Below are positions 14,446-64,000 of a stretch of DNA of 64,000 nt, piece after piece. The translations under genes and the position numbers were made by a program. The notes under the pieces were generated by a model. The model was given only the letters and a program-made list of their open reading frames with translations, did no database searches and was not told the origin of the DNA. This DNA comes from Clostridia bacterium (GTDB lineage: Bacteria; Bacillota; Clostridia; Christensenellales; UBA1242). The stretch covers positions 193,378 through 257,377 of the forward strand of contig JAFUSN010000003.1 of NCBI GenBank assembly GCA_017467625.1, given 5' to 3'. Position 1 is the stretch's first letter, and every line of letters starts with the position of its first letter.

Positions 14446-14472
14446 AAAAAGCCTAAATAATTAGGCTTTTTT
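14446..14472 (-). terminator. Terminator of the tRNA operon
   Basis: aaaaagcctaaataattaggctttttt, with a T-run on both strands. Confidence 0.7.
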
Positions 14473-14560
14473 GGTGCTGATGGCCGGACTTGAACCGGCA
14501 CGGATATTTCTACCCGAGGGATTTTAAGTCCCTTGCGTCTACCTGTTTCGCCACATCAGC
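14472..14560 (-). tRNA. tRNA-Leu(UAA), CCA encoded
   Basis: Manual fold: acceptor GCTGATG/CATCAGC, anticodon loop CTTAAAA, long variable arm, T-loop GGTTCAAGTCC. Confidence 0.9.
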
Positions 14561-14568
14561 ATATATTT

Positions 14569-14643
14569 TGGAGGCGACACTCGGAATCGAACCGAGGAAT
14601 GGAGGTTTTGCAGACCTGTGCCTTACCGCTTGGCTATGTCGCC
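14569..14643 (-). tRNA. tRNA-Cys(GCA), CCA encoded
   Basis: Acceptor GGCGACA/TGTCGCC, anticodon loop CTGCAAA, T-loop GGTTCGATTCC. Confidence 0.9.
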
Positions 14644-14694
14644 GTAAAAGTGCAAACGGCAAGTTTTTCAACCCGCCGCTCTCACCTTCTTCTT

Positions 14695-14769
14695 TGGAGC
14701 GGGAAACGAGATTCGAACTCGCGACATCTGCCTTGGCAAGGCAGCGCTCTACCACTGAGCCATTCCCGC
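14695..14769 (-). tRNA. tRNA-Gly(GCC), CCA encoded
   Basis: Acceptor GCGGGAA/TTCCCGC, anticodon stem-loop CTGCC-TTGCCAA-GGCAG, T-loop AGTTCGAATCT. Confidence 0.9.
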
Positions 14770-14815
14770 ATAAAATAAAATTACTCGCCCGCACCGATAA
14801 GTGCAGTGCGAGTAA
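14770..14815 (-). terminator. Terminator-like hairpin plus U-run between tRNA-Val and tRNA-Gly
   Basis: Minus strand forms a hairpin ttactcgc(actgcac-ttatc-ggtgcgg)gcgagtaa followed by ttttatttta, 1-2 nt before tRNA-Gly. Confidence 0.45.
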
Positions 14816-14821
14816 TAAAGC

Positions 14822-14897
14822 TGGTGGGGGCTATAGGGCTCGAACCTATGACCGCCTGCTTGTAAGGCAGGTGCTCTCCCAGCTGCGCTAAACCCCC
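14822..14897 (-). tRNA. tRNA-Val(UAC), CCA encoded
   Basis: Acceptor GGGGGTT/AGCCCCC, anticodon stem-loop CCTGC-CTTACAA-GCAGG, T-loop GGTTCGAGCCC. Confidence 0.9.
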
Positions 14898-47047: not shown

Positions 47048-47074
47048 AAAAGCGCATAACAATTGTTATGCGCT
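47048..47074 (-). terminator. rnpB terminator
   Basis: agcgcataac-aatt-gttatgcgct followed by ttttgtttgt on the minus strand. Confidence 0.75.
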
Positions 47075-47396
47075 AGCCTGCCTGTAAGCCGAGTTCTGTC
47101 ATTTAAGGCAATCATCAATCTAGGCTTATTATTGCTAATAAGCTCATGCGATCACGGGAACGGACGAGCAGCCCATTTGTTCCACATCTTGCACCTCACG
47201 GAGTTTACAGCGGATTATTGTCACCAATATTCCGAGTGAGCTCTTACCTCACTTTTTCACCATTGCCACGAGTGGCTGTATATTTCTGTTGCACTTGTCC
47301 TCAAATTACTTTGGCTTGACGTTATCAAGCGTGATTGCTCTGCGGTGCTCGGACTTTCCTCACTGAAATTCAGCGTAATTGCCCAGCGGACTGTAA
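47072..47396 (-). ncRNA. rnpB: RNase P RNA
   Basis: ORF-free, GC-enriched stretch. The minus strand carries the universal blocks GAGGAAAGTCCGAGC, AGTGCAACAGAAA, GGTAAGAGCTCAC and ACAGAACTCGGCTTACAG. The 5' AGTCCGCT can pair with the 3' GGCAGGCT to form P1. Ends are approximate. Confidence 0.88.
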
Positions 47397-50136: not shown

Positions 50137-51147
50137 TTAATCATTGTTTTTAGGCTTTCTTCCACTGCGCTTAATTGGAGTTGTTGTAATTTTAACTTCC
50201 CTAATTTCTGGAATATTCATTTGCGTGTAGTCTTCTTGCTTTATAACATATTTTACCGGATTGTAGATATAGTTATCATCGAGATAATATCTTTCACCTT
50301 TTGATGTTAAATATGTAACAACATAGAATATTGCAATAAAGAGATATGTTGATGGAATTGTTATTGCGAGGCCTGAGAAGAATGTAAATAATGCAATAAT
50401 TCCATTAACAAAAATTATTGTCAAACGAACTGCAAGGCTCATTGAGAATATCAACCAAAAATGTTTGATAGTTGAAACAAAACTTTTTCCAAATGCAGTG
50501 AATGGATTCATATTTGACGCAATCATATTAGGCGCAATTCCCGTGAAAATAGCTAACTTAAATGAACCAAGAATTAACAAAAGCGCTGATAAAATGATTA
50601 AGCCAAGTAATGATGAGATTACAGTTTTAGCGGTATTTATAAAAACTATTATAAATGCAAATTGTAAGATGGTGAATGGCAGTGTAAAAAGAATGTTTGA
50701 AAGCGCATACTTAATTGATGGAATTAAATTTTGGATTCCGTTTTGGATATATTTAACATTCATGTTCATTGTTATTTTTTGATATGTAATTGATGCCAGG
50801 TTATAAAATGACATTTGAATCAAAATGTTAGGAAGAATAATTCCAAGTAAAATAAGGCCAAGATAACTTCCCCAAAGCGAACCAAAACTTGATGATAAAA
50901 CGCTTCCTAATGTTGACATTGTTTCATTGAAAGTTACAACAACTTCACTTGGGGCTGTGTAAACAGTTTGAAGCAAATTTGAAATTTTATCAAAAATACC
51001 ATTTGAATTTAAAAGATTGATTATTGGAGTTGAAGCTAAATATGTAAATAATCCACATATAATAACAATGATTAATGAATAAAGAAGTTGCTTCCAAACA
51101 AGCGCAAAGTTTGAAACAAAAAGTTTCAATGAATTTTTATAAGACAT
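50137..51147 (-). CDS. Hypothetical polytopic membrane protein
   Basis: 336 aa with about 7 hydrophobic helices. It has its own promoter on the minus strand: TTGATT (51234-51239), 17 nt spacer, TATAAT (51211-51216). Confidence 0.5.
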   Translation of the reverse strand: MSYKNSLKLFVSNFALVWKQLLYSLIIVIICGLFTYLASTPIINLLNSNGIFDKISNLLQTVYTAPSEVVVTFNETMSTLGSVLSSSFGSLWGSYLGLILLGIILPNILIQMSFYNLASITYQKITMNMNVKYIQNGIQNLIPSIKYALSNILFTLPFTILQFAFIIVFINTAKTVISSLLGLIILSALLLILGSFKLAIFTGIAPNMIASNMNPFTAFGKSFVSTIKHFWLIFSMSLAVRLTIIFVNGIIALFTFFSGLAITIPSTYLFIAIFYVVTYLTSKGERYYLDDNYIYNPVKYVIKQEDYTQMNIPEIREVKITTTPIKRSGRKPKNND

Positions 51148-51269
51148 AAAATTCCCACCTTAAAAAATTGCAAATTAAAATATTCTAAAAAAAACTTTAA
51201 TCTTGACATCATTATAATACCTAAAATTGAATAAATCAAGCATTTTGAATAATCATAGAAATTTTATGA

Positions 51270-51299
51270 AAAAAGGAGAAATAATATAATTATTTCCCC
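51270..51299 (-). terminator. Terminator closing the phage-derived operon
   Basis: ggggaaataat-tat-attatttctcc followed by ttttt on the minus strand, 12 nt after the holin-like stop. Confidence 0.7.
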
Positions 51300-51310
51300 T
51301 TAGTTTTTAT

Positions 51311-51832
51311 TTATTCAACATGTTCACTAACAAGTAAGTCAATTTCTTCACGAAGAAGTCTTAAATAATCTTCCTTTTTGTCTTTAAAGTTGTCTTTTTG
51401 TTTTAAGAATAAATTAATAAATTCAACTTTTTGATTTTCAAGTTCAGTTGTTTCCTTATTGTTAGTTAAATTTTCAACATGTAAGTTTTCTTCTTCATTT
51501 GCACTGTCAATGATAACATTTTCAACTGGTTGTTCCACAGTTAAAAGAATTTCTGAATTTTCAGGTTCATTGATTTCATTTTCAAAATCATTTGAGTTTT
51601 GGATGTCATCAGTTTCAGTTACAATTTTTTCTTCTGGTTCTTGTTTTTTATTTGGTGGTGCAATAATTCCAAGTAGAACTAAAATTCCACAAAGTGAAGT
51701 TACAACATCACTGAAAATTCCTTCATCAACATTAAAATTAAATTTTTGACCAAGAACTTTCACAATAAGAAAAATAGCACTTGACAGGCTCACCCAGAAG
51801 TTATAGGTTTTTATTCTGTCTTTAAGTTTCAT
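51311..51832 (-). CDS. Holin-like protein (phiLC3/phi11-type layout) with an acidic C-terminal tail
   Basis: N-terminus KLKDRIKTYNFWVSLSSAIFLIVKVLG...SLCGILVLLGIIAPPNKK has the two-TM layout and motif spacing of PF04531-type holins as I recall them. RBS aggaga. Confidence 0.55.
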   Translation of the reverse strand: MKLKDRIKTYNFWVSLSSAIFLIVKVLGQKFNFNVDEGIFSDVVTSLCGILVLLGIIAPPNKKQEPEEKIVTETDDIQNSNDFENEINEPENSEILLTVEQPVENVIIDSANEEENLHVENLTNNKETTELENQKVEFINLFLKQKDNFKDKKEDYLRLLREEIDLLVSEHVE

Positions 51833-51897
51833 TTTTTCTCCTAAATAAAGTTTTTTCTAATTTATTGAGTATAAATAATTCATAAATATATTGAGAT

Positions 51898-52143
51898 TTA
51901 AAGAGTTTCATTTTTCACCATCACATTATCATCGTAGCACATAGCTAAATAATTATCATTTATTGGTAAAACCGCATTATAGTTAAGCGATTTATCATAT
52001 GTGCATCGCATATTTGTTTTATCAATAGTGTAAATTTTCAATGCTGAATTAAAAATAAATAAATGTGATTTTGTTGTTGAAATTGGTTTAAGAGCAATGT
52101 TTGTTCCTGAAACAATTTTGTATAGCGTATTTTTAAAAATCAT
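51898..52143 (-). CDS. Orphan beta-rich protein, 81 aa (candidate tail-associated)
   Basis: ATGA overlap with the upstream 661-aa ORF. Same strand-turn-strand pattern as its neighbours. Confidence 0.45.
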   Translation of the reverse strand: MIFKNTLYKIVSGTNIALKPISTTKSHLFIFNSALKIYTIDKTNMRCTYDKSLNYNAVLPINDNYLAMCYDDNVMVKNETL

Positions 52144-54125
52144 AAATCAAATTGCAAAGTAAATTTTGCACTTACTCCCTTATTATTCATTCCAAGCGGA
52201 ACGTATTTAACTTGATTAACTAAATAAGAGTCTTCATTACTCGAAATGTTTTCTATTAATGTTTGATCAAGAATAAGATTATACCCTAAAATTGGTTCAG
52301 ATTTATTATTTGTAAAAATTAAAAGAATGTCATTTAAAAATTCAAAATCTACAATTGAACTTTTCTCAATAGAAGTTGGAATTCCTGAAATGAATTGATT
52401 TGGAGTATCATAACCAACAAGATTGTAAATTTTAAAATCATTGTTTTGAGATTTTTGTATTAGATACAATAAATTTGTTGATAAATAATTTTCAGATTCA
52501 TTTTCAAACAAGCTTAATGTGTACCTATACATTTGTGGATAGTAATATAGCCACAACTTTGGACTTGTGCTTTTTTCAACAATAACAGCCCTACCCTTGG
52601 AATATGTTTTAATTGCATCATGGGTGTAATAATATGCAAGAATAGAATATAAGTCAGTTTTTTGTTTATTTTGATCAAATGTAACAATTCTGCAATATGC
52701 AGCTCTCTCGTCTCCCTTTAAAAATATAACTGATGAGTCAGTGAAATTATTTTTAAACATTGAAATAACTGTATCAAATTCATAGTCATTAGATTCAGAA
52801 TTTGAGTTATAAATAAATAACTCATTTTGGCTATCATAATCTAAATATAATACATTCGCAAAATGGTTAGATTTTGTAATAACACCAATCATTAGCATAT
52901 TATTTTTTGTGTATGTTATTTCAACATCAAAAATATTATTAAGCAAAGATTCGGCGTCAAATGCTCCAAAATTTAATTCAATTGGACTTAAAATGCGGTT
53001 TTTTATAAGAAATGCAGATATAAATGGTTGTGTTTTTGAAACAACAAAAACAAAGGAGTCAAATGAAATAATTTTTGTAATATTTGCAATTGATAAATTA
53101 TTTGCATGTAAATCATAGATTGAATAATTCTCATTTTGATAGCCATATATAGTATTATTGCAAATAAAGAAAATTTTGTCGCCATCACGAGATAAAAATC
53201 TTGGTGTGTTTTTATTAAATAAATTGTAGAATGGTAAGTAGACTTTATCTCCAAGTTTATTGGAATATTTTATTTCAGTCCATGATGCTTCAAGTTCAGA
53301 ATTTGATTGTTTGGTTATTGAAACACAATTTTTTATATCTTCTCCCAAATCTATAACATGATTTCGTTTTGGCTCACTGACTGATAAATATGTAACTGGA
53401 GTATGATACTCTGTGCATACAGTTCGCGCAAAAGGTTTTTCGCCAATTGAAAAAACAATTTCATTAGTTTTTCCCTCGCCAAGATCCCCTTGTATTTCTA
53501 TTGAAAAGTTTTCTTCATTAAATATTAATGAGCAAGGAAATTTTTCTGTGGTTGTTTGACATCTTTCAATTTGGTTTTTGCTTGTAATATAACCACGCGA
53601 AATATTAATTGAGTCACTCAATCCTAAGCCGAGTAAAAATTTTAAAAAATCATTATTACCAAGTGTTAAAATTAAATCATTATCAGTTATATTTAAATAA
53701 ATATAAATCGATAAAACTAAACTTTTATTTTCCTCCTTTAAAATCCCATCTGGCGTTTCTTCAGTTATTAGTGAAAAGTAATTTATTAAAGTTAGATCAT
53801 CTTTTGTATTACATAGTCCAATTTCTTTAATATATTTATTATTTAATTCAAAATCATCAATTATTACGGTTTTTTTAATGAAAATATCACTAAATTTTGG
53901 ATTAGTTTGCAGATTTGTTGTTTCAAGCCTATATGCCTTGATTGGTGTTGTTAATTTAAATTCAGTTTGTTTTAAAGAAGGTTCACCAATTCCAATTGCA
54001 ATAAATTCGCCGTATGATTTCTGACTTATTAACCTATCAAATACTGTCTTATAAAATGAGTTAAAATAAGTTGTTTTTTTGCCACAAAATTCAACTTCTA
54101 ACTTGTTATGAAAAGAAAACTTCAT
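52140..54125 (-). CDS. Orphan structural protein, 661 aa (candidate tail, nozzle or fibre)
   Basis: Translationally coupled. Repeated hydrophobic beta-strand pairs such as GDKIFFICNNTIYGY, DSSVIFLKGDERAAYCRIVTF and NDILLIFTNNKSEPILGY. Confidence 0.6.
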   Translation of the reverse strand: MKFSFHNKLEVEFCGKKTTYFNSFYKTVFDRLISQKSYGEFIAIGIGEPSLKQTEFKLTTPIKAYRLETTNLQTNPKFSDIFIKKTVIIDDFELNNKYIKEIGLCNTKDDLTLINYFSLITEETPDGILKEENKSLVLSIYIYLNITDNDLILTLGNNDFLKFLLGLGLSDSINISRGYITSKNQIERCQTTTEKFPCSLIFNEENFSIEIQGDLGEGKTNEIVFSIGEKPFARTVCTEYHTPVTYLSVSEPKRNHVIDLGEDIKNCVSITKQSNSELEASWTEIKYSNKLGDKVYLPFYNLFNKNTPRFLSRDGDKIFFICNNTIYGYQNENYSIYDLHANNLSIANITKIISFDSFVFVVSKTQPFISAFLIKNRILSPIELNFGAFDAESLLNNIFDVEITYTKNNMLMIGVITKSNHFANVLYLDYDSQNELFIYNSNSESNDYEFDTVISMFKNNFTDSSVIFLKGDERAAYCRIVTFDQNKQKTDLYSILAYYYTHDAIKTYSKGRAVIVEKSTSPKLWLYYYPQMYRYTLSLFENESENYLSTNLLYLIQKSQNNDFKIYNLVGYDTPNQFISGIPTSIEKSSIVDFEFLNDILLIFTNNKSEPILGYNLILDQTLIENISSNEDSYLVNQVKYVPLGMNNKGVSAKFTLQFDL

Positions 54126-55135
54126 AAATTCACCTCATAATCACTTATTTCGATTGAACATGACACTGACAAATTTGAATTTAAAATTTCATTTTCATCA
54201 ACTGATTCAACAATATAATTAGAATTAAATTTATCTGTTAAAATCAAGAAAAATTTTTCTTTTAAATCATCATAAAATGAAGAAACATTATTGATTGGAT
54301 TTGTAAAATTAATTTTAGTTGGAAAACTTAGTCCATTTGAAATCATTTCCATGTGATAGCAAATTCCACTCTTTACATAAGAAAGTAAAATTTTTTCACC
54401 ATCACTTGAAGATGATACAGATGTTACTTCTTTTTCTATAAAAATATCATTTGTGTCATTAAATTCTCGATAAAACAAATTTCCACTTGTGTCAACTCTA
54501 AATAAATAAATTTTATTGCCAAGTTTTGCAAAAGAATAATCAGTAGTTGATTGAATTGAGTTAAAATCTTCAGTTGAATATAATGAATTTTCCTTCGGTG
54601 AGTTTAAATAATATAATGTATTTTTATCACACATTGAAATTAAAAAATAATTTTCCAAAACCAATGTTTCATATTTGTGTATTTGATGATTTTCGTCTAA
54701 ACCAAAACAAGTTAATGTTATTCCATTGATGATAAATGATGTATCTTGTTTAGAAGATATTTCAAATTGCAAATTGACCGTATCACTAAATAATGGCAAA
54801 TAATTTTTTGTTAAATTAATTTGTTGTGTGCCAGGATTTACGTTGCGTGTGGTTTTATATATTGGCGTATCATCAATAAAAATTTTTATTGAAATAGTTG
54901 TATTTTCTGTAAAAAATAAATCTACAATTCCATTTAGATAAATATTTTGATTTTTAGTGATATTGATTTTAGCTATTGATGTTTGAAAATTTTTTACAAT
55001 ACTTTGCCCATTGAAGTATTTGCTGAATATTGCTGGAAAAATTATATTATTTTGAACTAAATTCTTGTTTGCAACTTGTGATTTATTATCTAAATTTTCA
55101 GTAAGCTGAAGGATAGTTTTTATTGGATTAATCAT
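54122..55135 (-). CDS. Orphan structural protein, 337 aa
   Basis: An N-terminal beta-sandwich-like segment (IYLNGIV..KIF..LQFEIS..INGITL) is followed by blade-like repeats such as GNKIYLFRVDTSGNLFY. Confidence 0.6.
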   Translation of the reverse strand: MINPIKTILQLTENLDNKSQVANKNLVQNNIIFPAIFSKYFNGQSIVKNFQTSIAKINITKNQNIYLNGIVDLFFTENTTISIKIFIDDTPIYKTTRNVNPGTQQINLTKNYLPLFSDTVNLQFEISSKQDTSFIINGITLTCFGLDENHQIHKYETLVLENYFLISMCDKNTLYYLNSPKENSLYSTEDFNSIQSTTDYSFAKLGNKIYLFRVDTSGNLFYREFNDTNDIFIEKEVTSVSSSSDGEKILLSYVKSGICYHMEMISNGLSFPTKINFTNPINNVSSFYDDLKEKFFLILTDKFNSNYIVESVDENEILNSNLSVSCSIEISDYEVNL

Positions 55136-56511
55136 TTTTCACCAATCGTTTTAATATTGAATTCAAGAGATTCTATTTTAAAATAATCTTCCCCTTCAAA
55201 TTGAAATTGAAAATAATTACCAACTACACCTAATCCATTCATATTTATTATTCCAGAAATAGAATTATATTCATATTCAGCGATATTTGTAAAAATTTTA
55301 AGTTTATATGATCCAGTTCCATTAATATAAATCGATGTAAGCGTTTTATATTTGCATTCATCAAAATAAAGTTTTGCAAACTTAATAAATTTATATTCGG
55401 ATGTCATAATATTTTTATTTAAAGCTAAAATTTCATTTTTATTATCAGTATCATTAGTTAATAAAACTAATAGATAATAGTTTATTGTTTTAATTAAATA
55501 AATTGATTTTAAATTTTTTATATAATGGATAGTTGTATTATTATTTTGAATATCTAGTTCAATTAGCATTGTTTTATATTCCAACTCGGAAAAATATTCG
55601 CAACAAATATAGTAATGATTATTAAAAACTAAACTTGATAATTTTTCTATTTTTAATTTTTCAAAAACTTCAGAAAACAACTCTTTTATATTATTACCAT
55701 CAAATATAAATATTCCACCACTTGTAACAAAAATGATATTATCATCAATAATTTCAATTGAATTTGCAATAATTTGCGAATTTATTTTAAATAGTGAATT
55801 TAAATACGTTTCATTTGAATTATATTGAAGTTTTGAAATTGCATATTGTTGAACAACATACAAATTGTTCATATGAGTAATTATTTTTAATATCTTACCA
55901 TGTGCAGAGTTTAGCGGAATTGAATTAATTAAATCAAAATTTGTATCAATATTTTCTAATTCACTTTCTATATAAAACAAGTTAGAATTTGAGTTGTTTA
56001 CAGTAAAATATAAATTGTTTTTAAAAAATTCAACACAACCAATCATTGGCATATTTGGGAGGATAATTAAAGGTTCATTTTTTTCTATTAAAACAAATAA
56101 CGAATCATTATCATAGCAATAAAATTTTTCATTGTTGAGAAAAAATTTAGGATTTGTATTAAATTTTATTTCTGTTGATACAAATTTATATGTAGTTAAA
56201 TTTAGTTCAAATAAAGTAAAGGTTTCACTCACACCAAAAATTCTTTTTTGAGTTTCACCAGCTATGTCTAAATATTCGTAAAATTGTATGTTTATAAATT
56301 TTGAAAGCTCAGAAGCATTTTCCGTTATAAAGTTTTCATATTCATTAGCTGGTATAATAAATTTAAATAAATTTGAATATCCAATTGTTGGTTGAATATT
56401 TCCTAAAGATGTACTTATGTTGTTTAAGTCTGAAATTAAAAGCAAATCTTTTTGTAGTAATTGTAGAGTGTGTTTAGTATTAAAATTATTAAAAGTATAA
56501 TTTTTATTCAT
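55132..56511 (-). CDS. Orphan structural protein, 459 aa
   Basis: Blade-like repeats (NNLYFTVNNSNSNLFY, DDNIIFVTSGGIFIFDG). The C-terminal segment IYINGTG..KIF..FQFEGE..IESLEF resembles the N-terminus of the next protein. Confidence 0.6.
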   Translation of the reverse strand: MNKNYTFNNFNTKHTLQLLQKDLLLISDLNNISTSLGNIQPTIGYSNLFKFIIPANEYENFITENASELSKFINIQFYEYLDIAGETQKRIFGVSETFTLFELNLTTYKFVSTEIKFNTNPKFFLNNEKFYCYDNDSLFVLIEKNEPLIILPNMPMIGCVEFFKNNLYFTVNNSNSNLFYIESELENIDTNFDLINSIPLNSAHGKILKIITHMNNLYVVQQYAISKLQYNSNETYLNSLFKINSQIIANSIEIIDDNIIFVTSGGIFIFDGNNIKELFSEVFEKLKIEKLSSLVFNNHYYICCEYFSELEYKTMLIELDIQNNNTTIHYIKNLKSIYLIKTINYYLLVLLTNDTDNKNEILALNKNIMTSEYKFIKFAKLYFDECKYKTLTSIYINGTGSYKLKIFTNIAEYEYNSISGIINMNGLGVVGNYFQFQFEGEDYFKIESLEFNIKTIGEK

Positions 56512-57095
56512 CTTATAAATGTTGACTTTAAAAGTCTTTCCTTTTTGGTTTTATATTTAAAAATTTCATATAAAAATTTATTTTTCCAAAACTCACTTGC
56601 TTCAAATTCGTTTTTTGATGCAAAAAACTCACTTACAACGCCATAAGCAATAATTTTTTTGCTGATGTTTTTAGGTAGTAGCATATCATCACTGATATCT
56701 TTTATTACTTTTGGAATATATTTATATGTAACCAAATATTCCCTATATGGTGCTTCAACAATAATATAGTTTGGCGTTAGATCAAAATTTACTTTTTTAT
56801 TTAGTGGGTTTTTTACATCAAGAATTTTAATTGCTCTATTTACTAATGTATAATATGGAATTTGAGAATCAATGTTTGATGTTATCAATTCAGTTGTAAT
56901 AAAATCAAAATAATGCTCTGCAGTTGCTTCCATTGTAAAATTATAAAAACTAATTAGTCTCAATAAATCATTTCTAATTTGGGTATCTTCAATATCAATA
57001 AGATGATTGTAATTTTCGACAGCATCAAGTAAATCGCTTCGATTTAATATTAAAATGCATCTTTTTAAAAAGTTTTTAAACATAGTATTATCCAA
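56508..57095 (-). CDS. Candidate head-to-tail adaptor (about 190 aa)
   Basis: The call rests on size and on position two genes after the capsid gene, as for T7 gp11-type adaptors. The start is uncertain: TTG at 57095 or ATG at 57083. Confidence 0.4.
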   Translation of the reverse strand: MDNTMFKNFLKRCILILNRSDLLDAVENYNHLIDIEDTQIRNDLLRLISFYNFTMEATAEHYFDFITTELITSNIDSQIPYYTLVNRAIKILDVKNPLNKKVNFDLTPNYIIVEAPYREYLVTYKYIPKVIKDISDDMLLPKNISKKIIAYGVVSEFFASKNEFEASEFWKNKFLYEIFKYKTKKERLLKSTFIR

Positions 57096-57106
57096 GATAA
57101 ATAAAA

Positions 57107-57448
57107 CTAAATCCGTGAAGATGTCTTGTATAAATCATTTAGTTTATCTTTAATAGATAAAGTATTATTTTTAATATTTTTTTCAATAACTAAATTATTG
57201 ATATTTTCTATTTCGTCAAAAATTTTAGTGGAATGTTCCACCCTTGTTTTTTGGAGAATATTAATTAAATTAACTTTAAAATTGCTAAAAGTATAACAAA
57301 TTTCATTGTTATTTGCAGAATTTAATATCATGAATAATTTTTTCTTATAATTAAATACTAGCTTATAATTTTTATCAATTAAAGTTATTAAATTATAATA
57401 ATTAAATTGATCATTATACTCGACAAATTCATTCGAATTTAGTTTCAT
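57107..57448 (-). CDS. Hypothetical phage protein, 113 aa
   Basis: RBS aaggaa. Located between the capsid gene and the adaptor-sized gene. Confidence 0.5.
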   Translation of the reverse strand: MKLNSNEFVEYNDQFNYYNLITLIDKNYKLVFNYKKKLFMILNSANNNEICYTFSNFKVNLINILQKTRVEHSTKIFDEIENINNLVIEKNIKNNTLSIKDKLNDLYKTSSRI

Positions 57449-57459
57449 TTATTTTTTCC

Positions 57460-58647
57460 TTAAGATTCTTTTATGCCTGTAATTTTTGCTTGACCACTTG
57501 GTTTGTTGCAAATTAAATCAGCATATTTTACAAGTGTGGCTTGATATGTTGGTTTTCCTGGGGTTTGCCTAATTACTCTTCCGTCTTCACCCTCAAGCCA
57601 TTTCCAATCACAAAGTTGGTGTAAATTAAATTCAGATGTATTTAATAAATACATTGTGTTGGCAGGAACAAATTTATCAGAAACAACAGGAATGCCGTTG
57701 TAAGAAATCGCTTTAAAACCACCTTCCAAATTTAAAATATCAATGTTGCTTCTGTATGATGCAAGATATGATTGATAATTTCTTTTAACTCCTGCTGAAC
57801 ATACAATAAAGTCAACTTTACTGTCTGCATTTTCATCAAGTTCATCAATAGCTTTTTGCATGGCTACTTCTGTTATATCTGCATTTGTTCCACCTGTTGA
57901 AATATCTTTCATATATGGAACCATCCAACTGTATGTTGATCTGTCAAGTCCATAGAGACTTCCAGTTGTTTGGAAAATTGCACCAAGTCCTGTAATTTCA
58001 TTGTTATATGATCCTTGAACACAGAGTTTATAACCTGTTTGATAAGCATTTGCAGTGAATGAAGCGGATGTGAAATATACTTTTTTATTGATTCTATCAA
58101 TTGATTTGATTCTAAGTGACGATGCACCGGTTGCTACCACTCCTGAGGTGGAAACAATATCAACAACCATTCCTTCAATTAAATTTTTAACTGAATCAAC
58201 AGTTACATTGTTTGTTCCATTTGCTGAAATTGATGCCAAAAAACCTGTTCCATCACCATATAACATTCTTCCAAAGTTAAATGTGCTTGCTTTAACAAGT
58301 CCGTCCATTTCTGCATTCAAAAGGTTAACAAATGCACCGGCAGAATTTTCTGAAGCACGAATTGCTTTGTCACTAATTTCAAGTTTTCCATAAAGGTTTT
58401 TAAGTGTTAAGACAAATTGAGCATAGTTATTGCTTGCTGATTCAGGAAGTTCGCCGTCTTCTGTTCCCGCTCCAATTCCTCCATTAATTCCATATGGAGC
58501 AAATTTTCTAATTTCCTTTCCCCAAACATCAGCTGTTGTTTGATTGATTCTTGCAAGTAATGGATTGATGTTTGTGTTTAATTGATTTGCGACAACGCCA
58601 AGATACACTTCTTTTAATGCGCTGTCGGCTGTTTGTAAAGTTACCAT
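57460..58647 (-). CDS. Major capsid protein (probable HK97 fold)
   Basis: 395 aa, directly after the scaffold gene, strong RBS (aggaga), Gly/Ala/Thr-rich composition typical of capsid proteins. It is the most GC-rich ORF in the cluster. Confidence 0.65.
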   Translation of the reverse strand: MVTLQTADSALKEVYLGVVANQLNTNINPLLARINQTTADVWGKEIRKFAPYGINGGIGAGTEDGELPESASNNYAQFVLTLKNLYGKLEISDKAIRASENSAGAFVNLLNAEMDGLVKASTFNFGRMLYGDGTGFLASISANGTNNVTVDSVKNLIEGMVVDIVSTSGVVATGASSLRIKSIDRINKKVYFTSASFTANAYQTGYKLCVQGSYNNEITGLGAIFQTTGSLYGLDRSTYSWMVPYMKDISTGGTNADITEVAMQKAIDELDENADSKVDFIVCSAGVKRNYQSYLASYRSNIDILNLEGGFKAISYNGIPVVSDKFVPANTMYLLNTSEFNLHQLCDWKWLEGEDGRVIRQTPGKPTYQATLVKYADLICNKPSGQAKITGIKES

Positions 58648-58655
58648 AAAATCTC

Positions 58656-59237
58656 CTATTTAAGCATTTTTGAAAATATTTCCCCTGCCTCTTTAATCGT
58701 TTTTGGTTTTTCAGATTCAACAATATAAACATTAGTTGAATTTCCTGAAATTAATTTTGGCGTTTGAGGAATATTGTTGATTTTTGATAAATATTCAGCA
58801 ATAATTTTTGTTTTTAGAGCTTCATTGTTGCTTAAGTATTCATCAATAAATTTTGAATCATTTAAAATATTTGCAGACCTTTCATTTGCTTGATTAATTA
58901 CAGCTAATCCAATGTCAAACTTATTTGGTAAATTTTGAAAAAGTTCATTATTTACAATTTGTAATATTTCTTCTTTCTTATCTTCTGAGTTTGTTCGTTT
59001 TAAAAAATCATCAATATTTTCTTCTTTATTAAAAAGTGCATTTTCATTAAATTCTTTTTCAATTTCAGCCAATTTTTGACTTTTTCTAGTAAATTCTGCT
59101 TCTAAATTTGTGTAAGCATCTAAAAGGTTTTTTACATTTTTAAACTTTCCAAATGTAGAGCCATTATTGCTTTCTAATTCATTTTGTGCACTGTTTTGAT
59201 TAGAAATATTTTCTGGTTGTTCTACTAATTCTTCCAT
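58656..59237 (-). CDS. Capsid scaffolding protein
   Basis: 193 aa, acidic with coiled-coil character (LLDAYTNLEAEFTRKSQKLAEIEKEF), positioned between portal and capsid. Confidence 0.55.
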   Translation of the reverse strand: MEELVEQPENISNQNSAQNELESNNGSTFGKFKNVKNLLDAYTNLEAEFTRKSQKLAEIEKEFNENALFNKEENIDDFLKRTNSEDKKEEILQIVNNELFQNLPNKFDIGLAVINQANERSANILNDSKFIDEYLSNNEALKTKIIAEYLSKINNIPQTPKLISGNSTNVYIVESEKPKTIKEAGEIFSKMLK

Positions 59238-59238
59238 A

Positions 59239-61107
59239 TTATTCTCCTAAAAATTTTTTATGTTCATTGATATGTTGTAAGAGTTTTTTCTCAAAATTCG
59301 TATCAAAGTCCTCATCTTTTAATGTAATTAAAAATTTAATATGTTCATTAATGTGAATTTTGTGATCATCAATTTCAAGTGGTGAATTTAGTTTAATTAG
59401 TTTTAAATTTTCTTTCTGGGCTCTTTCTTTTTGACATTCATCAATGCTTTTTTCAGTTACCCAATCTTTAAATCCGAAAAGATCTAAAAGTTTTGATTTG
59501 TTAGTTTCTAAAATTTTTCCATTTGAATCATTAAACAATCCTTTTTCAAGAAGTTTAATGGCGAGTTCCTCTTTTGTGGATGCATCATCAAGTAGTTCAT
59601 TTTTAGTTTCAAAAATCACATCGTCACTTGTTATGTTACTATTGTTCCAATAATATATTTTTATTTTTCCATTTTTATCAGTAATAGAATCAAGACGGTT
59701 TTGTGTTGTGAACTGTTTATAAAGCTTAATTAAGAAAACGCCCACTTTTTTAATTGAATCGCGAATATATTCCGCAGTTAGTGATAAACGAGATTCGTCT
59801 TGTTTAATTAGCATAGATAGAGCCGAACCGCTATTTATTCCAGATGGAATGCTTGAATTTGTTGTTACATCGCTTATGCAGCTTAGATTGTTTATTTCAT
59901 TCAAAAGATTTTTTTCTTCATCTTCGAGTTCATTTGGAACAGTTCCTGGTTGAATGAATTCAGGTGGATGTGATCCGTTTCTATAAATCAAAATTTTGCC
60001 AGGAGCTAGACCCTCATCTTCTAAATTATTGACATCTACTGAACCATCTTCAACACTTAAAACACCACTTGCAAGTCTTGCAATAAATTCATGTTTTTTA
60101 TTTTTTATCGCATTGTATGTTCGTTGCAATGGAATACATCTTTCAATAACACTGATACCCCAAAAACATGAAAGTTGTTTTGTTGAAACTTGCTTAACAA
60201 AAGGATATGAATATGAATTGTTTTTTCCAATTTTATATGGCAAATCACCATCATATAACAGGATATTTTTTGCAGTTATTGTTAATCTTCCATTTGGTCT
60301 TTTCTGTGTTGGTTTTTCATATTTTTCAACAACTAAAATATGATTGTGTTTTGGTGAGTGAATTAATTTTGAAATATTACTTCTCCCAGAAAAACCAGAA
60401 ATTAATGTATTGGTTGCAATTTCAAATGTATCAACATCTTCTCCAGTTAACTTAACTCCCCAAGTTTCGTTAACAATATCAACGGGATATGCCCTTGCTT
60501 CAATTATTGATGCGCAGTCATCAATTTCAATAGAACTATTTGAATCTGGATATATTTCAAATGGTGAGCATACAGAAATTACAGCATCTCCAGATTTTAT
60601 GTAATTATTTGAATTTTGATCATTTGCGATTATTGGGCCAATTTCATTATCCCATGAGACCTTATAAAAACTTGTTCCAGTAATTTCACTCCATGCTGTG
60701 GCTGATGAAATTAATGTATCAAAATTATTGCTATCTAAGGCATAATTTAAAATTGATTTTGTTAGTTCTGCAGCTGCAACATCATTTTCAGATGAACTTG
60801 ATGGCCTAACTGTTAAATTGGGCTTAATTTTTGATAGTTTTGCAAGTCTAGTTTCAATGACTGGTGCAATGTGATTAAAAACTTCTCGGTTTTCCCAATA
60901 ATAATTTTTTTCAATATCTAAAATTTCTCCCGTTGAAGAAATATAGCTAAACTGATTACCAATATAGTAATTCATATTTAAGCCCCATGTTAGCTCATAA
61001 ACTCTTCTTTCTTCTTGTCTTCTTTTTAAGTCTTCATTAATTGCACTGACAATAACTTCGTCTTCCTCTTTAGAATAAAAAAATTTTTGATTACTCTTTT
61101 GTTTCAT
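59239..61107 (-). CDS. Portal protein
   Basis: 622 aa, in the position between terminase and scaffold. No other candidate of portal size is present. Confidence 0.6.
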   Translation of the reverse strand: MKQKSNQKFFYSKEEDEVIVSAINEDLKRRQEERRVYELTWGLNMNYYIGNQFSYISSTGEILDIEKNYYWENREVFNHIAPVIETRLAKLSKIKPNLTVRPSSSSENDVAAAELTKSILNYALDSNNFDTLISSATAWSEITGTSFYKVSWDNEIGPIIANDQNSNNYIKSGDAVISVCSPFEIYPDSNSSIEIDDCASIIEARAYPVDIVNETWGVKLTGEDVDTFEIATNTLISGFSGRSNISKLIHSPKHNHILVVEKYEKPTQKRPNGRLTITAKNILLYDGDLPYKIGKNNSYSYPFVKQVSTKQLSCFWGISVIERCIPLQRTYNAIKNKKHEFIARLASGVLSVEDGSVDVNNLEDEGLAPGKILIYRNGSHPPEFIQPGTVPNELEDEEKNLLNEINNLSCISDVTTNSSIPSGINSGSALSMLIKQDESRLSLTAEYIRDSIKKVGVFLIKLYKQFTTQNRLDSITDKNGKIKIYYWNNSNITSDDVIFETKNELLDDASTKEELAIKLLEKGLFNDSNGKILETNKSKLLDLFGFKDWVTEKSIDECQKERAQKENLKLIKLNSPLEIDDHKIHINEHIKFLITLKDEDFDTNFEKKLLQHINEHKKFLGE

Positions 61108-61270
61108 TTTTATAACTATTCCTTTTAAATAAACTTGTTAATTCTTTAAAACAATTTTCACATAGATATATGTTTCCTTTGTAACTATTTGTAACTAATT
61201 CATATGTGCATGTTTGGTTGCATAAAACAGTGTCACATTTTGCAAATGAATTAATTTTATTAAGAATCAT
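61091..61270 (-). CDS. Unlisted 59-aa Cys-rich (zinc-ribbon-like) protein
   Basis: The ATG lies 7 nt after GAGGAGA. The peptide is MILNKINSFAKCDTVLCNQTCTYELVTNSYKGNIYLCENCFKELTSLFKRNSYKNETKE, with Cx4Cx3C and CxxC motifs. It overlaps the stop of the upstream gene and the start of the portal gene, and is just under the 60-aa cutoff of the ORF track. Confidence 0.55.
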   Translation of the reverse strand: MILNKINSFAKCDTVLCNQTCTYELVTNSYKGNIYLCENCFKELTSLFKRNSYKNETKE

Positions 61271-61691
61271 TTTTAATCTCCTCTAATAATTTGCTTTTTA
61301 GTTCAATAAGTTCATTGTTGCTAAGTTGTTTTATCTCATCACCTTCTACCTCCTTCGCAAAAATTTCAAGAAGAGTTTTAATAGCGAGCATGTCAGGCGG
61401 AATATAATGCGTGGTAATTTTTTTCTTAGATAAAGTAAGCGAGCTAGAGATTTCATTTCTTGTTTTTTCTGTTTCATTTTCTATTTTAATTTTATCACAT
61501 AAACCCATAGAATTTTGAGCACTCGTGCCATCAAAATCAAAAAATGACATGTTTTTAATGTTTTTAAAGTCATTTTTTGCGTTTTTATTAAAATTTTCAT
61601 ATTCAAGCTGTTCTTCAGTATATGAAAATCCTTTTGCACGTTTTATTAAGAGTTCTATTAAGTCTTTATTAGTAAATTTTTTGTTTTTCAT
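61260..61691 (-). CDS. Terminase small subunit-like protein
   Basis: LIKRAKGFSYTEEQ and KKITTHYIPPDMLAIKTLLE resemble the G.Y.E...K..K..PPD..A..F.LKN pattern of some Firmicute phage TerS proteins, recalled from memory. The gene overlaps the TerL stop. Confidence 0.4.
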   Translation of the reverse strand: MKNKKFTNKDLIELLIKRAKGFSYTEEQLEYENFNKNAKNDFKNIKNMSFFDFDGTSAQNSMGLCDKIKIENETEKTRNEISSSLTLSKKKITTHYIPPDMLAIKTLLEIFAKEVEGDEIKQLSNNELIELKSKLLEEIKNDS

Positions 61692-63111
61692 TTCGTTTTA
61701 GTGACCTTACTAATTTTTCTTTATCACGTTGAATTTCAGTTAAATATCTTTTTTCTAAATTCTGCGCTGGCAGATTCATGATGTAGTAGCGAAGTTCGTC
61801 AAGAGAGTGGTCATCAATTTTGATTGGATTGTCACCGCCACCCCATCTATATGTTTTAAATTCACGAATTAAATTTTTACATGATGAAAAAATAAACAAT
61901 TTTGTTTTGCCGTCAATGCTTTTTAAAAATGTCTTAACTTTTGATATTCCAGCAAGTAAATTTTTATTTACATTTGTATTACATAAAATTCCATTTTCAT
62001 AAAATAATTCTGCAACGCTTTTTGGGCTGGATAATGTTTTTTGATTTGCTGCTGAATCAATTAAGCATTCAATCATGCCGTTTCTAGCTTTTTTCCATGA
62101 AAGTGATGCTGAAATTTCCTTTATCCTATTTGAATGATATTCAATGGTTTGATTTGATTCGTAATGTTCTGCAATTACATATACATTATTATCATAATCT
62201 TTTGCGTACCAATGGCATGAAAGCGGGTTTGATAGTCCTGGGTCAATCGAAATAATATCTTGCCAATCTGCTGGAATTTCAAATGGTTCAATAACATGTG
62301 TTTCAATTTCAAATTCTGAATAAACCAAACCACAGTCTTTTAAGTAAAATTTACCATCTTTTCTTGTTGCTAGTTCATCAGCTGAAAGTGATGCGGATAG
62401 TCTTTTTATTTCAGCTTTGTTTAAATACGGATTATCTTCCCAAGACATAAACTGAAAATATACTTCAGGATCATTATTTTTATTTAGGTAAATTTCATTA
62501 TAAATGAATGACAAACCTTTAAGAGGTGTCATTGTTCCAAAAATTTCACCACTTCTATCCATGATGCGCATTTTGCATTCATTATAAATATCTTCAGGTG
62601 GTTCTTCATCAAACCAGACAAAATCCAGACTTGCTCCTTGAAATTTTTCCCTGCCTTCCTCACATGACTTAAACCAAATTTTACTTATATTTCCGAATGA
62701 GTTTATTACACTAATAGATTCAATTACTCCAAATTCAGGTGCTTCACGTTTTCCGGATATCATCGTTATGTTTTTAATTGTATTTTTAGGTAGATATTTT
62801 AAAATCTTGGCTTGTGCAACTTCTTTTTGAACTCTTGTGGATAAACTTACAACCCAACATTCAGTTTGAGGCTTGTTTTTTCTAAAGGGGTGGATTCCAA
62901 GTGAAAGCCAAATTGTTTCAACTGCCCCGCATTCGGTTTTTCCGGTTCTATTTCCACCAAACACCCACCTATTTCTTTTTTGTGATTGATGAAACATAAG
63001 TTGCTTTTGATGAATAATTTTCCCTGTGTTGTATCTTGAAAGGTTTAATAAATTTCTAACGTTAATTTCTTTTTGAATTTTTAATAATTTAATTATTTTT
63101 ATTTTATCCAT
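61669..63111 (-). CDS. Terminase large subunit
   Basis: Walker A FGGNRTGKTECG, Walker B LDFVWFDEEPP, C-terminal nuclease-type acidic residues (ISIDPG, DDHSLDELRY), 480 aa. Confidence 0.85.
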   Translation of the reverse strand: MDKIKIIKLLKIQKEINVRNLLNLSRYNTGKIIHQKQLMFHQSQKRNRWVFGGNRTGKTECGAVETIWLSLGIHPFRKNKPQTECWVVSLSTRVQKEVAQAKILKYLPKNTIKNITMISGKREAPEFGVIESISVINSFGNISKIWFKSCEEGREKFQGASLDFVWFDEEPPEDIYNECKMRIMDRSGEIFGTMTPLKGLSFIYNEIYLNKNNDPEVYFQFMSWEDNPYLNKAEIKRLSASLSADELATRKDGKFYLKDCGLVYSEFEIETHVIEPFEIPADWQDIISIDPGLSNPLSCHWYAKDYDNNVYVIAEHYESNQTIEYHSNRIKEISASLSWKKARNGMIECLIDSAANQKTLSSPKSVAELFYENGILCNTNVNKNLLAGISKVKTFLKSIDGKTKLFIFSSCKNLIREFKTYRWGGGDNPIKIDDHSLDELRYYIMNLPAQNLEKRYLTEIQRDKEKLVRSLKRNEKQKIY

Positions 63112-63132
63112 AAATATATAAAAAAGATTTAT

Positions 63133-63162
63133 TATTATACAAAAATCGCATTTTACATTACA
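63133..63162 (-). promoter_or_regulatory. Possible SigA-type promoter in front of TerL
   Basis: Minus strand reads TTGTAA, 18 nt spacer, TATAAT, 22 nt before the ATG. No Shine-Dalgarno sequence is visible before TerL. Confidence 0.35.
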
Positions 63163-63185
63163 ATTTTATAAAATATAATCCAAGT

Positions 63186-64000
63186 ATGAAGAAATTGATA
63201 ATATTTTTGAATTTTTTAATAGTGATAAATTTTGTAAATTATCCTATAAAAAATACTAATGCAGAATCTCTAACATATGCAAAAGCTTTAAATAATTGTA
63301 CACTTTATAAAACAGTAAATTTATCAAACGACCTCACTGATATTTATTTTGTTATTCCTGAAACTTATTTTGTCGTTATTATAGAAAATGTTTCAGATGA
63401 AGTGATAAAGGTTCAGTATGATAAATTTATTGGTTATGTTCGTGCTGAATCGGTTGTTGTTGCTACATTTATACCAAATGTTAAAACACTACTAGGTGTA
63501 ACATTTGATATTAAAGAAACCTCTGGAACTCAAATTTGGTCATATCCATCATCTGTGTCAGGAACTATTTTAACAACATTATCTGCATCAACAAAAAAAA
63601 TAAATTATATTGCCTATGCATATGGATCAGTGCCAAATGGTGGTGAATCAAATTTATGGTATTTTGTAAGTTACACCCCTGAATTTAATTCAACAAATTA
63701 TTATGAGGGTTATATTTATAGTGAAAATGTTACAAACTTATCACCTATTATTCCTAATGTTGAAAGTAACCCAATTAATGAAACTTTAATTCAAAATATT
63801 ACAAGTGATGACAATGTTCAAAAGCAACCATCTCAGACATTTCAAACATTATTAATTATAGTTATAGCTGTACCAATTATTTTGTTAATTGCGGTTATTT
63901 TGTTGAAAATAACAAAAAAAATTAAAGAAAATGCAGTTTTTAAGCAAAATAATAAAATTGAAAATAAATACAATTCATCAAAGCCTTTGGCTAATAATAT
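63186..64000 (+). CDS. Secreted/membrane-anchored protein with SH3b-like repeats, 3' end outside the window
   Basis: The ATG at 63186 is open to the window end, so the ORF is not in the track. It has a signal-peptide-like N-terminus, two segments of the type I.V.Y....GYV, and a TM helix near residue 225. Confidence 0.6.
   Translation, partial: MKKLIIFLNFLIVINFVNYPIKNTNAESLTYAKALNNCTLYKTVNLSNDLTDIYFVIPETYFVVIIENVSDEVIKVQYDKFIGYVRAESVVVATFIPNVKTLLGVTFDIKETSGTQIWSYPSSVSGTILTTLSASTKKINYIAYAYGSVPNGGESNLWYFVSYTPEFNSTNYYEGYIYSENVTNLSPIIPNVESNPINETLIQNITSDDNVQKQPSQTFQTLLIIVIAVPIILLIAVILLKITKKIKENAVFKQNNKIENKYNSSKPLANN

Follow-up and report, generated by a model that had tools for sequence, protein, structure and literature searches.

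The stretch of DNA considered here, 64,000 nucleotides (nt) from a Clostridia bacterium (GenBank assembly GCA_017467625.1, contig JAFUSN010000003.1, positions 193,378 to 257,377 of the forward strand; hereafter the window), contains a phage-derived operon of head and short-tail genes at 51311–63111 on the minus strand, and the question it raises is whether these genes still belong to a phage or have become part of their host. A preliminary description of the locus, made from its letters alone, offered two answers: the late region of a podovirus-like prophage with early genes beyond nt 64000, or a domesticated particle-forming operon resembling a gene transfer agent (GTA) or a capsid-forming satellite. 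Fixed synteny, intact open reading frames (ORFs), low ratios of nonsynonymous to synonymous substitution (dN/dS), and a guanine-plus-cytosine (GC) content matched to the host support the domesticated, GTA-like alternative. The operon is probably a chromosomally fixed and vertically inherited particle operon of podovirus origin, GTA-like in character and without the means to excise, to replicate, or to maintain lysogeny. Judged from its sequence, it is most likely a GTA of Christensenellales-related gut Clostridia, with particle formation, DNA packaging, and transfer as its inferred functions.

The Christensenellales, which are widespread in the gut, have hardly been brought into culture. The operon is a concrete candidate for the genes behind the particles containing random Christensenellaceae DNA seen in a 2026 study (PMC12946183), and its named parts (terminase, portal, capsid, nozzle, regulator, and promoter motif) can be used as handles. 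No description of this particular gene cluster was found in the literature, and the operon is a strong and so far undescribed GTA candidate. If the interpretation is true, gut Firmicutes would have two podovirus-type GTAs, the second seemingly independent of the first, and the case for GTA-mediated exchange as a trait common to the gut microbiome at large would be strengthened. Virome studies would also have to take warning, as loci flagged as viral in IMG/VR would be host genes.

Distribution, fixed position, and purifying selection

The major capsid protein (MCP) was used to scan one genome per GTDB species, and the 80 best loci were fetched and compared by tblastn and ORF clustering. Relatives of the MCP occur in at least 362 species-level genomes; among the 80 best, the genomes bearing a taxon name are mostly labelled 'Christensenellaceae bacterium' or Ca. 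Borkfalkia. A metagenome protein collection contains more than 6500 homologs, the best 120 of which are 76–100% identical, many of them on contigs of 0.2–0.9 Mb. The examination of synteny in related genomes suggested in the preliminary description reveals one architecture across the 80 species loci, with flanks that are constant within each clade. From the upstream end the shared order is a large gene, a 212-residue regulator, a divergent membrane gene, the large terminase gene TerL, a 143-residue gene, portal, a scaffold-like gene, MCP, a 113-residue gene (in some loci), a 195-residue gene, the nozzle gene, a variable distal tail set, a holin gene (in some loci), and a homolog of the 336-residue membrane protein (mem336) that adjoins the operon in the window. 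The downstream housekeeping flank depends on the clade and is formed by rnj, by YqfD-PhoH-7TM_HD, by DUF4364/ROK/ferredoxin/cytidylate kinase, or by phosphoglucomutase. MCP clusters formed at a distance of 0.12 are all pure for flank type except for one pair of types, which may reflect an ORF-calling artefact in high-GC loci. Synteny persists across species whose RNase J proteins are 61–85% identical. In IMG/VR, 17 short fragments carrying this MCP family are listed as viral, and they have the same host flanks.

Frameshifted or absent orthologs in close relatives had been named beforehand as the sign of a decaying remnant. Among loci not cut by a contig end, TerL is full-length in 53 of 53, portal in 61 of 62, and MCP in 79 of 79. 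Values of dN/dS, calculated by the Nei-Gojobori method for close pairs with unsaturated dS, are 0.01–0.04 for MCP, 0.02–0.07 for TerL, and 0.03–0.09 for portal. Those for the adaptor candidate, the nozzle, and the distal tail genes are 0.07–0.23, with 0.067 for the 661-residue distal gene in one pair of loci (L024/L025). Between genomes the GC content of the head module varies widely, from 28 to 65%, in step with that of the flanking chromosome (r = 0.955, n = 36). Within the window's clade the MCP distance is 0.24, compared with 0.21 for RNase J, and over nine taxa the distances of portal (r = 0.95) and TerL (r = 0.77) correlate with those of RNase J. Taken together, the intact ORFs, low dN/dS, GC tracking, and divergence exclude a decaying remnant as well as an island that was mobile until recently. 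By these sequence comparisons it is well established that the operon has long been resident, has descended vertically, and has been kept functional. GTAs in the sense of RcGTA, BaGTA, VSH-1, and the Faecalibacterium system are recognized by their gene content and by vertical inheritance at a conserved locus under purifying selection, and further by particles that package essentially random host DNA, with no enrichment of the element and in pieces shorter than the encoding cluster, and deliver it to recipient cells. Of these traits the first two are seen here: the operon contains no integration, replication, or lysogeny genes, and it is inherited vertically at a conserved locus.

In four species (L023, L026, L027, and L081) 2–4 kb of extra ORFs lie between TerL and portal, the core genes being intact. 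A more distant MCP relative (P0158, 40% identical; also P0278–P0291) recurs on contigs of ∼15.8–16.6 kb in many samples, and these ∼16-kb contigs could represent the complete genome of a small phage related to the ancestor of the operon. A scan of IMG/VR for the P0158 contigs returned nothing, and a scan of JGI metagenomes returned only another chromosomal copy of the operon family.

Flanking genes and the search for early phage functions

In agreement with the preliminary description, none of the 13 operon proteins matches an integrase, repressor, replication, tape-measure, sheath or tube, protease, or endolysin family in Pfam, PHROG, and NCBIfam-type scans. The contig was extended by an exact-protein look-up with TerL, which leads to the same contig as a 432-kb scaffold, ENA ERZ28655269. 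Locus L001 is 100% identical to window positions 51669–64000 (12.3 kb) and reaches ∼nt 73100, ∼9 kb beyond the window. Rightward beyond TerL are found a divergent gene of 318 residues, the 212-residue gene on the operon strand, and a giant gene. More than 9 kb past the window and more than 15 kb leftward are free of early phage modules, the search for att-like repeats gave only AT-rich repeats at chance level, and no recombinase or integrase occurs among those recurring flank gene clusters that were annotated. Because neither side holds an early module and no att-like repeats were found, a prophage late region with its early genes past nt 64000 is ruled out; the extension contains a membrane protein, a regulator, and a giant gene, and this arrangement recurs across species. 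The preliminary characterization of the operon as self-contained was slightly too strong, given the conserved regulator gene just beyond the window (∼64115–64753) and the absence of an endolysin.

To the left of the operon lie mem336, RNase J1, SigK, RNase P RNA, and MgsA, and the housekeeping flank read earlier from the letters is present in full (RNase J1, 4e-202; SigK, 4e-79; RNase P RNA, 236 bits). The multi-pass membrane protein mem336 (50137–51147, minus strand), the right-hand neighbour of the element as transcribed, is separated from the operon by a terminator and lies 25 nt from rnj. Its gene follows the element in all three clades, Christensenellaceae and Borkfalkia loci included, the genes beyond it differ, and family scans with it gave no match. 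A functional tie to the element is one possible reason for this constancy, and another is that the gene marks the site where the ancestor inserted.

The gene on the opposite side had been described as divergent and SH3-like. The divergent gene is real (63186–64142, plus strand, cut by the window end at 64000), but it has no SH3 match of its own, the family SH3_3 being weakly matched in 8 of 17 orthologs (best E 0.0011). The protein has 318 residues, begins with a signal peptide, contains a region with weak similarity to SH3b, and is anchored in the membrane by its C terminus. A gene of this kind always accompanies the operon: clades A and B have an ortholog that is placed and oriented alike, and the positional equivalent in clade C falls into a cluster of its own (c10).

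The giant gene past the regulator (L001:1–7981, ∼65131–73111 in window numbering, plus strand) has at least 2660 stop-free codons under table 11 and is called in ENA at 9755 residues. A Pfam scan of its first 2660 residues gave no significant match, and its N-terminal part (cluster c19) is positionally conserved within the window's clade. The window also contains a tRNA cluster (Leu-TAA, Cys, Gly, and Val; 14472–14897, minus strand) and a class A RNase P RNA (47069–47394, minus strand), which are not candidate integration sites because neither adjoins the element.

Operon layout and gene calls

The 13 ORFs run from TerL to the holin gene at 51311–63111, all on the minus strand, with gaps that are short or replaced by overlaps, as originally described. 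The operon is 11.8 kb long, and ∼9.7 kb in Christensenellaceae-labelled loci. Longer overlaps of 23, 11, and 17 nt link TerL, a 143-residue ORF, a 59-residue ORF, and portal. The 4-nt start/stop overlaps reported at 52140/52143, 54122/54125, 55132/55135, and 56508/56511 are genuine; each is ATGA, and these four provide the sole TGA stops in the operon. TGA serves as stop in 2 of 37 host genes of this genome.

Gene calls in ENA/Logan for loci L001 and L002 divide the region corresponding to 52140–57095 into proteins of 215, 441, 345, and 721 residues, compared with 195, 459, 337, 661, and 81 residues here. An alternative genetic code was considered and rejected: table 11 leaves the ORFs intact, TGA is a stop that is simply rare in this genome, and the read-through falls exactly at the ATGA overlaps. 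The deviating calls are probably an annotation artefact in which the rarity of TGA stops led the gene caller to code 4, so that overlapping tail genes were fused or shifted.

Base composition varies along the operon, with a GC content of 22–25% over the distal tail genes (51000–57000), ∼30% over the head genes, and 32% in the remaining window. In other genomes the 4 kb after MCP averages a slightly lower GC content than the flanks.

Head module

TerL (61669–63111, minus strand; 480 residues), the first gene of the operon, is identified as a large terminase by Terminase_6N (1.5e-12), Terminase_6C (2.9e-4), and phrog_2 (1.4e-30). Its motifs are intact, including Walker A (GGNRTGKT52), Walker B (FVWFDE164), and the nuclease residues (DPG290/DDH433). 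The portal protein (59239–61107, minus strand; 622 residues) matches P22_portal (5.1e-18) and phrog_156 (4.8e-32), and the MCP (57460–58647, minus strand; 395 residues) matches NCBIfam NF033394 capsid_maj_Podo (8.2e-87) and phrog_14242 (1e-58). Single-sequence searches of the PDB with MCP and portal gave nothing significant.

Between portal and MCP, in 69–76 loci, lies an acidic helical protein of 193 residues (58656–59237, minus strand) without a match in family scans, Prp included; its position and composition make it a putative scaffold. On these family assignments the module matches a podovirus (P22/T7/SU10-like) morphogenesis module, having a P22-type portal, a podovirus MCP, a nozzle fold, and no protease match, with the adaptor and scaffold roles assigned by position. 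The parallel to podoviruses drawn in the preliminary description (portal, scaffold, capsid, adaptor, and tail, with no protease) is thereby backed by the type of portal and by the nozzle-like fold of the 459-residue protein.

Three smaller proteins accompany these. The 143-residue protein (61260–61691, minus strand) is kept in 38 loci, with two motifs conserved in the alignment, and is possibly a truncated small-terminase-like protein. Of 12 members, 3 weakly match the C-terminal part of the phrog_309 profile (terminase small subunit; E 0.017–0.042), and a PDB profile search with the family gave no match. This is only a lead; if correct, the protein would be a small terminase that has lost the DNA-binding domain, a condition known from other GTAs. 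The 59-residue protein (61091–61270, minus strand) is found in nine loci, all in the window's clade; it is Cys-rich and zinc-ribbon-like by inspection of the Cys pattern and has no family match above the curated cut-off. The 113-residue protein (57107–57448, minus strand), a head completion or connector candidate, is kept in 20–26 loci, and family scans with it gave no match.

Tail, distal genes, and lysis

The 459-residue protein (55132–56511, minus strand) is a tail nozzle of podovirus type according to its AlphaFold model (predicted local distance difference test, pLDDT, 73), because a Foldseek search of the PDB gave tail or nozzle chains of podoviruses for every one of its 15 best matches, namely those of Pa223 (1.9e-14), SU10, VP1, Pan3, GP4, T7 gp12, PhiM1, HRP29, and crAss001. 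The model was built from a shallow alignment, the search having returned five proteins. Directly before the nozzle gene, in 56–65 loci covering all clades, lies a gene for a protein of 195 residues (56508–57095, minus strand), or of 191 residues if the ATG at 57083 is the start. Searches of Pfam, PHROG, and the PDB with this protein gave no match; by analogy with the position of T7 gp11 and P22 gp4 it is a putative head-to-tail adaptor. Sequence-profile searches of the PDB with the 195-, 459-, 661-, and 143-residue families returned nothing significant.

The distal tail genes are fast-evolving and modular, with identities of 22–46% compared with 61–81% for MCP. The 337-residue tail protein (54122–55135, minus strand) is ∼800 residues long in a sister clade and has no match in family scans. 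The 661-residue protein (52140–54125, minus strand) is modelled with high confidence as a beta-propeller (AlphaFold pLDDT 90). Its PDB matches are generic beta-propellers only, so that its designation as a putative tail fibre or receptor-binding protein is positional; matches in a viral library comprise WD40-like phage proteins and some annotated tail fibres. The 81-residue protein (51898–52143, minus strand) occurs in seven loci of the window's clade, and its start overlaps the stop of the 661-residue gene (ATGA).

The last gene of the operon encodes a holin of 173 residues (51311–51832, minus strand) with two N-terminal membrane helices and an acidic tail, which matches Phage_holin_1 (1.1e-4), phrog_297 (1.1e-9), and phrog_962 (1.9e-6).

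In one locus of the window's clade (L014:12185–14340) the nozzle gene is followed directly by the holin gene, without the 337-, 661-, and 81-residue genes, from which it follows that the distal tail module can be dispensed with or is encoded elsewhere. Christensenellaceae-labelled loci have a 301-residue gene and a DUF7934 gene at the distal-tail position. In the sister clades (L017–L026 and L028–L081; cluster c8; e.g., L023:17079–18050) the DUF7934 protein (Pfam, 3.7e-32) is encoded by the last or second-to-last gene of the element, and it has no counterpart in the window's clade.

Promoter motif, terminator, and regulator

The intrinsic terminator reported after the last gene is real and consists of a 13-bp stem, a 3-nt loop, and a T-run at 51301–51273 on the minus strand, 8 nt past the holin stop. 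The SigA-like promoter reported before TerL fared less well: the consensus TTGTAA-18-TATAAT is present (63163–63134, minus strand), but such matches occur at chance density, and conservation across species does not extend to the -10 hexamer. The AT-rich window contains 103 sigma-A-like matches, compared with 92 ± 11 expected from shuffled sequence, and a sigma-A promoter was rejected as a distinctive signal of this locus on both grounds.

The same region (63134–63163, minus strand) contains a motif, AATGCG-N5-TGTC, at 63139–63152 that is conserved across species. Eight species of the window's clade each have a single copy at the locus, immediately 5′ of the TerL start codon, and the surrounding intergenic DNA differs. 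The whole window has two occurrences, compared with 0.41 expected. Related sequences containing GTCG are visible by eye at the same place in Christensenellaceae-labelled loci.

The conserved 212-residue protein encoded outside the window (∼64115–64753, minus strand) contains a helix-turn-helix of the type found in sigma-70 region 4, as judged from profile matches of its orthologs, with Sigma70_r4_2 matched in 10 of 20 (best 3.8e-5) and Sigma70_ECF in 8 of 20. Its best PDB profile match is a sigma factor (E 0.005), and it also matches phrog_79, a 'Q-like' transcription regulator (1.2e-4). These resemblances suggest a dedicated late-type activator, of which the AATGCG-N5-TGTC promoter would be the putative target.

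A model for particle production

The gene identities suggest how the operon may work. The neighbouring protein, similar to sigma region 4 and to phage late regulators, would switch on the AATGCG-N5-TGTC promoter. Scaffold, capsid, and portal proteins would then assemble a procapsid, which TerL, with at most a truncated small-terminase partner, would fill by a headful-type mechanism, most probably with fragments of the host chromosome and not with the element. The putative adaptor, the nozzle (its fold modelled), and the beta-propeller fibre proteins would close the head and make a short tail. Finally, the holin and a wall hydrolase encoded elsewhere would release the particles from a lysing subpopulation.

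A more specific proposal is advanced tentatively, as one that may well be right and on which we would not yet rely: that the operon is an ancient single-locus GTA of podovirus origin, fixed before the Christensenellales families diverged, independent of the GTA of Faecalibacterium prausnitzii (FpGTA), controlled by its own sigma-like activator through AATGCG-N5-TGTC, and the source of the particles with 4–6 kb of host DNA seen for Christensenellaceae in human gut viromes.

Weighing the interpretation

Several observations weigh against the operon being a GTA of this lineage. The tie between it and the published packaging in Christensenellaceae is circumstantial, and the taxonomy of the window's own clade consists of the NCBI label 'Clostridia bacterium' only. 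The MCP distances are not significantly correlated with those of RNase J over the nine taxa (Mantel test, r = 0.38, p = 0.09). No endolysin family is matched by the 13 operon proteins, the Christensenellaceae-labelled clade lacks even the holin, and the small-terminase assignment is weak (E ∼0.02–0.04). The nearest cultured phages have genomes of ∼45 kb, and a small capsid can therefore not be assumed.

The alternative that best survives the data, although we regard it as unlikely, is a domesticated particle with no role in gene transfer, such as a PBSX-like killer or bacteriocin, a device for lysis or for release of extracellular DNA, or some other host function, the packaged DNA being incidental. 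The evidence for domestication is identical to that for a GTA, and the fast evolution of the distal tail genes fits recognition of competitors as well as recognition of recipients. PBSX provides a precedent, being a Firmicute element that packages host DNA and yet kills (PMC12946183). However, purifying selection on TerL and portal is as strong as that on the capsid, which argues that DNA packaging itself is selected, and the podovirus nozzle is a DNA-ejection device.

A phage satellite or mobile island similar to the capsid-forming phage-inducible chromosomal islands (cf-PICIs), with capsids of its own and dependent on a helper phage for the missing functions, would be in keeping with the small size (∼12 kb), with the possession of TerL, portal, scaffold, and MCP, and with the phage-type late regulator nearby. 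We consider this very improbable in view of the missing integrase, replication, and primase genes and att repeats, the recurrence of the same locus with the same flanks in many species, and the GC content, which matches the host; moreover, the operon has its own nozzle and fibre-like genes, whereas cf-PICIs as described have no tail genes.

Scarcely credible is an origin of the operon as late genes of a normal temperate prophage of podovirus type, with early, lysogeny, and replication genes elsewhere or with repeated integration at one hot spot. The order of TerL, two small ORFs, portal, scaffold, and MCP is that of Microbacterium phage Shocker, and the IMG/VR listing of 17 family fragments as viral would agree with it, but those fragments carry the host flanks, the DNA searched on both sides is free of early genes, the annotated recurring flank clusters include no integrase, and the synteny spans the species compared above by RNase J. 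A functionless, decaying remnant, to which the missing lysogeny, replication, and endolysin genes and the three genes lost from L014 might point, has a negligible probability given the full-length core ORFs with dN/dS of 0.01–0.1, the intact TerL catalytic motifs, and the conserved promoter motif and terminator.

Comparison with known systems

The cf-PICIs share with the operon a small size, a chromosomal location, and a terminase, portal, and capsid of their own. As described they are mobile, having an integrase, a replication module, and att sites, and they borrow the tails of a helper; the operon has none of these features and encodes a nozzle.

Podoviruses with a P22-type portal and a nozzle of T7/SU10/Pa223 type have the same head order, the same TerL, portal, and MCP families, and the same nozzle fold as the operon. 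The nearest cultured relatives are actinobacteriophages, namely Microbacterium phage Shocker, Cellulosimicrobium phage DS1, and the Arthrobacter phage Jasmine group, which are autonomous, have genomes of 42–47 kb, and have MCPs that are only 25–30% identical; the operon keeps only ∼12 kb of morphogenesis genes. The head order that it shares with Shocker, a phage of 45 kb, places its ancestor among podoviruses of ordinary size.

PBSX of Bacillus, with the PBSX-like defective prophages, is like the operon a phage-like chromosomal element of a Firmicute, and it makes particles without self-replication and has its own sigma-like or late regulator. PBSX differs in being contractile-tailed and ∼28 kb long, in having the repressor Xre, in packaging 13-kb fragments, and in killing rather than transferring, and there is no gene similarity between the two beyond generic terminase and capsid folds.

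RcGTA of the Alphaproteobacteria is likewise a domesticated head-tail cluster that is inherited vertically over a whole order under purifying selection, without integrase or replication genes and with the lysis genes and some accessory genes elsewhere. It is siphovirus-like, with a tape measure, a tube, a prohead protease, an MCP of another lineage, and regulation by CtrA/GafA, whereas the operon is podovirus-like, with a scaffold, no protease, and an adjacent regulator similar to sigma region 4.

The closest comparison is with FpGTA, and the preliminary statement that no example with such gene content was known from Firmicutes is outdated by its publication in 2026 (PMC12946183, Nat Commun). 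FpGTA is divided between two loci: an operon of 10.5 kb, which encodes TerL, portal, a Prp-like protein, an 'N4-gp56 family' MCP, and a nozzle, and a second locus with fibres, holin, and endolysin; its particles measure 40 nm and contain random host DNA of ∼8.4–8.9 kb (PMC12946183). The same study reports GTA-like packaging of random host DNA, of ∼4.1 and ∼6.3 kb, for Christensenellaceae metagenome-assembled genomes (MAGs; HGM11616 and QANA01), to which no gene cluster was assigned, its gene-cluster search having been confined to Onthomonas, Gemmiger, and Faecalibacterium MAGs (PMC12946183). If these fragments came from particles of the operon, they would be shorter than its 11.8 kb, or the ∼9.7 kb of Christensenellaceae-labelled loci. 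In common with the operon described here, FpGTA is a host operon of ∼10 kb in the chromosome of gut Clostridia, encodes TerL, portal, MCP, and a podovirus-type nozzle, and lacks lysogeny and replication genes; it is near-ubiquitous in its host lineage, and its possible small terminase, like the candidate here, is without an obvious DNA-binding domain.

The two systems differ in several respects. The MCP of the operon belongs to capsid_maj_Podo (8e-87) and has no N4-gp56-family match at E ≤ 0.1, whereas that of FpGTA (RCH50849.1) is named as N4-gp56 family by NCBI. The position between portal and MCP is occupied by the 193-residue scaffold-like protein in the operon and by the Prp-like RCH50850.1 in FpGTA. 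Nozzle, fibre-like genes, and holin are combined in one operon here, whereas the fibres, holin, and endolysin of FpGTA are encoded ∼125 kb away, and the host orders differ. Because the MCP family is different, a scaffold-like protein replaces the Prp-like one, and tail genes and holin lie in the same operon, the operon, as set apart by family names and descriptions, appears to be a separate GTA-like member and not an ortholog of FpGTA.

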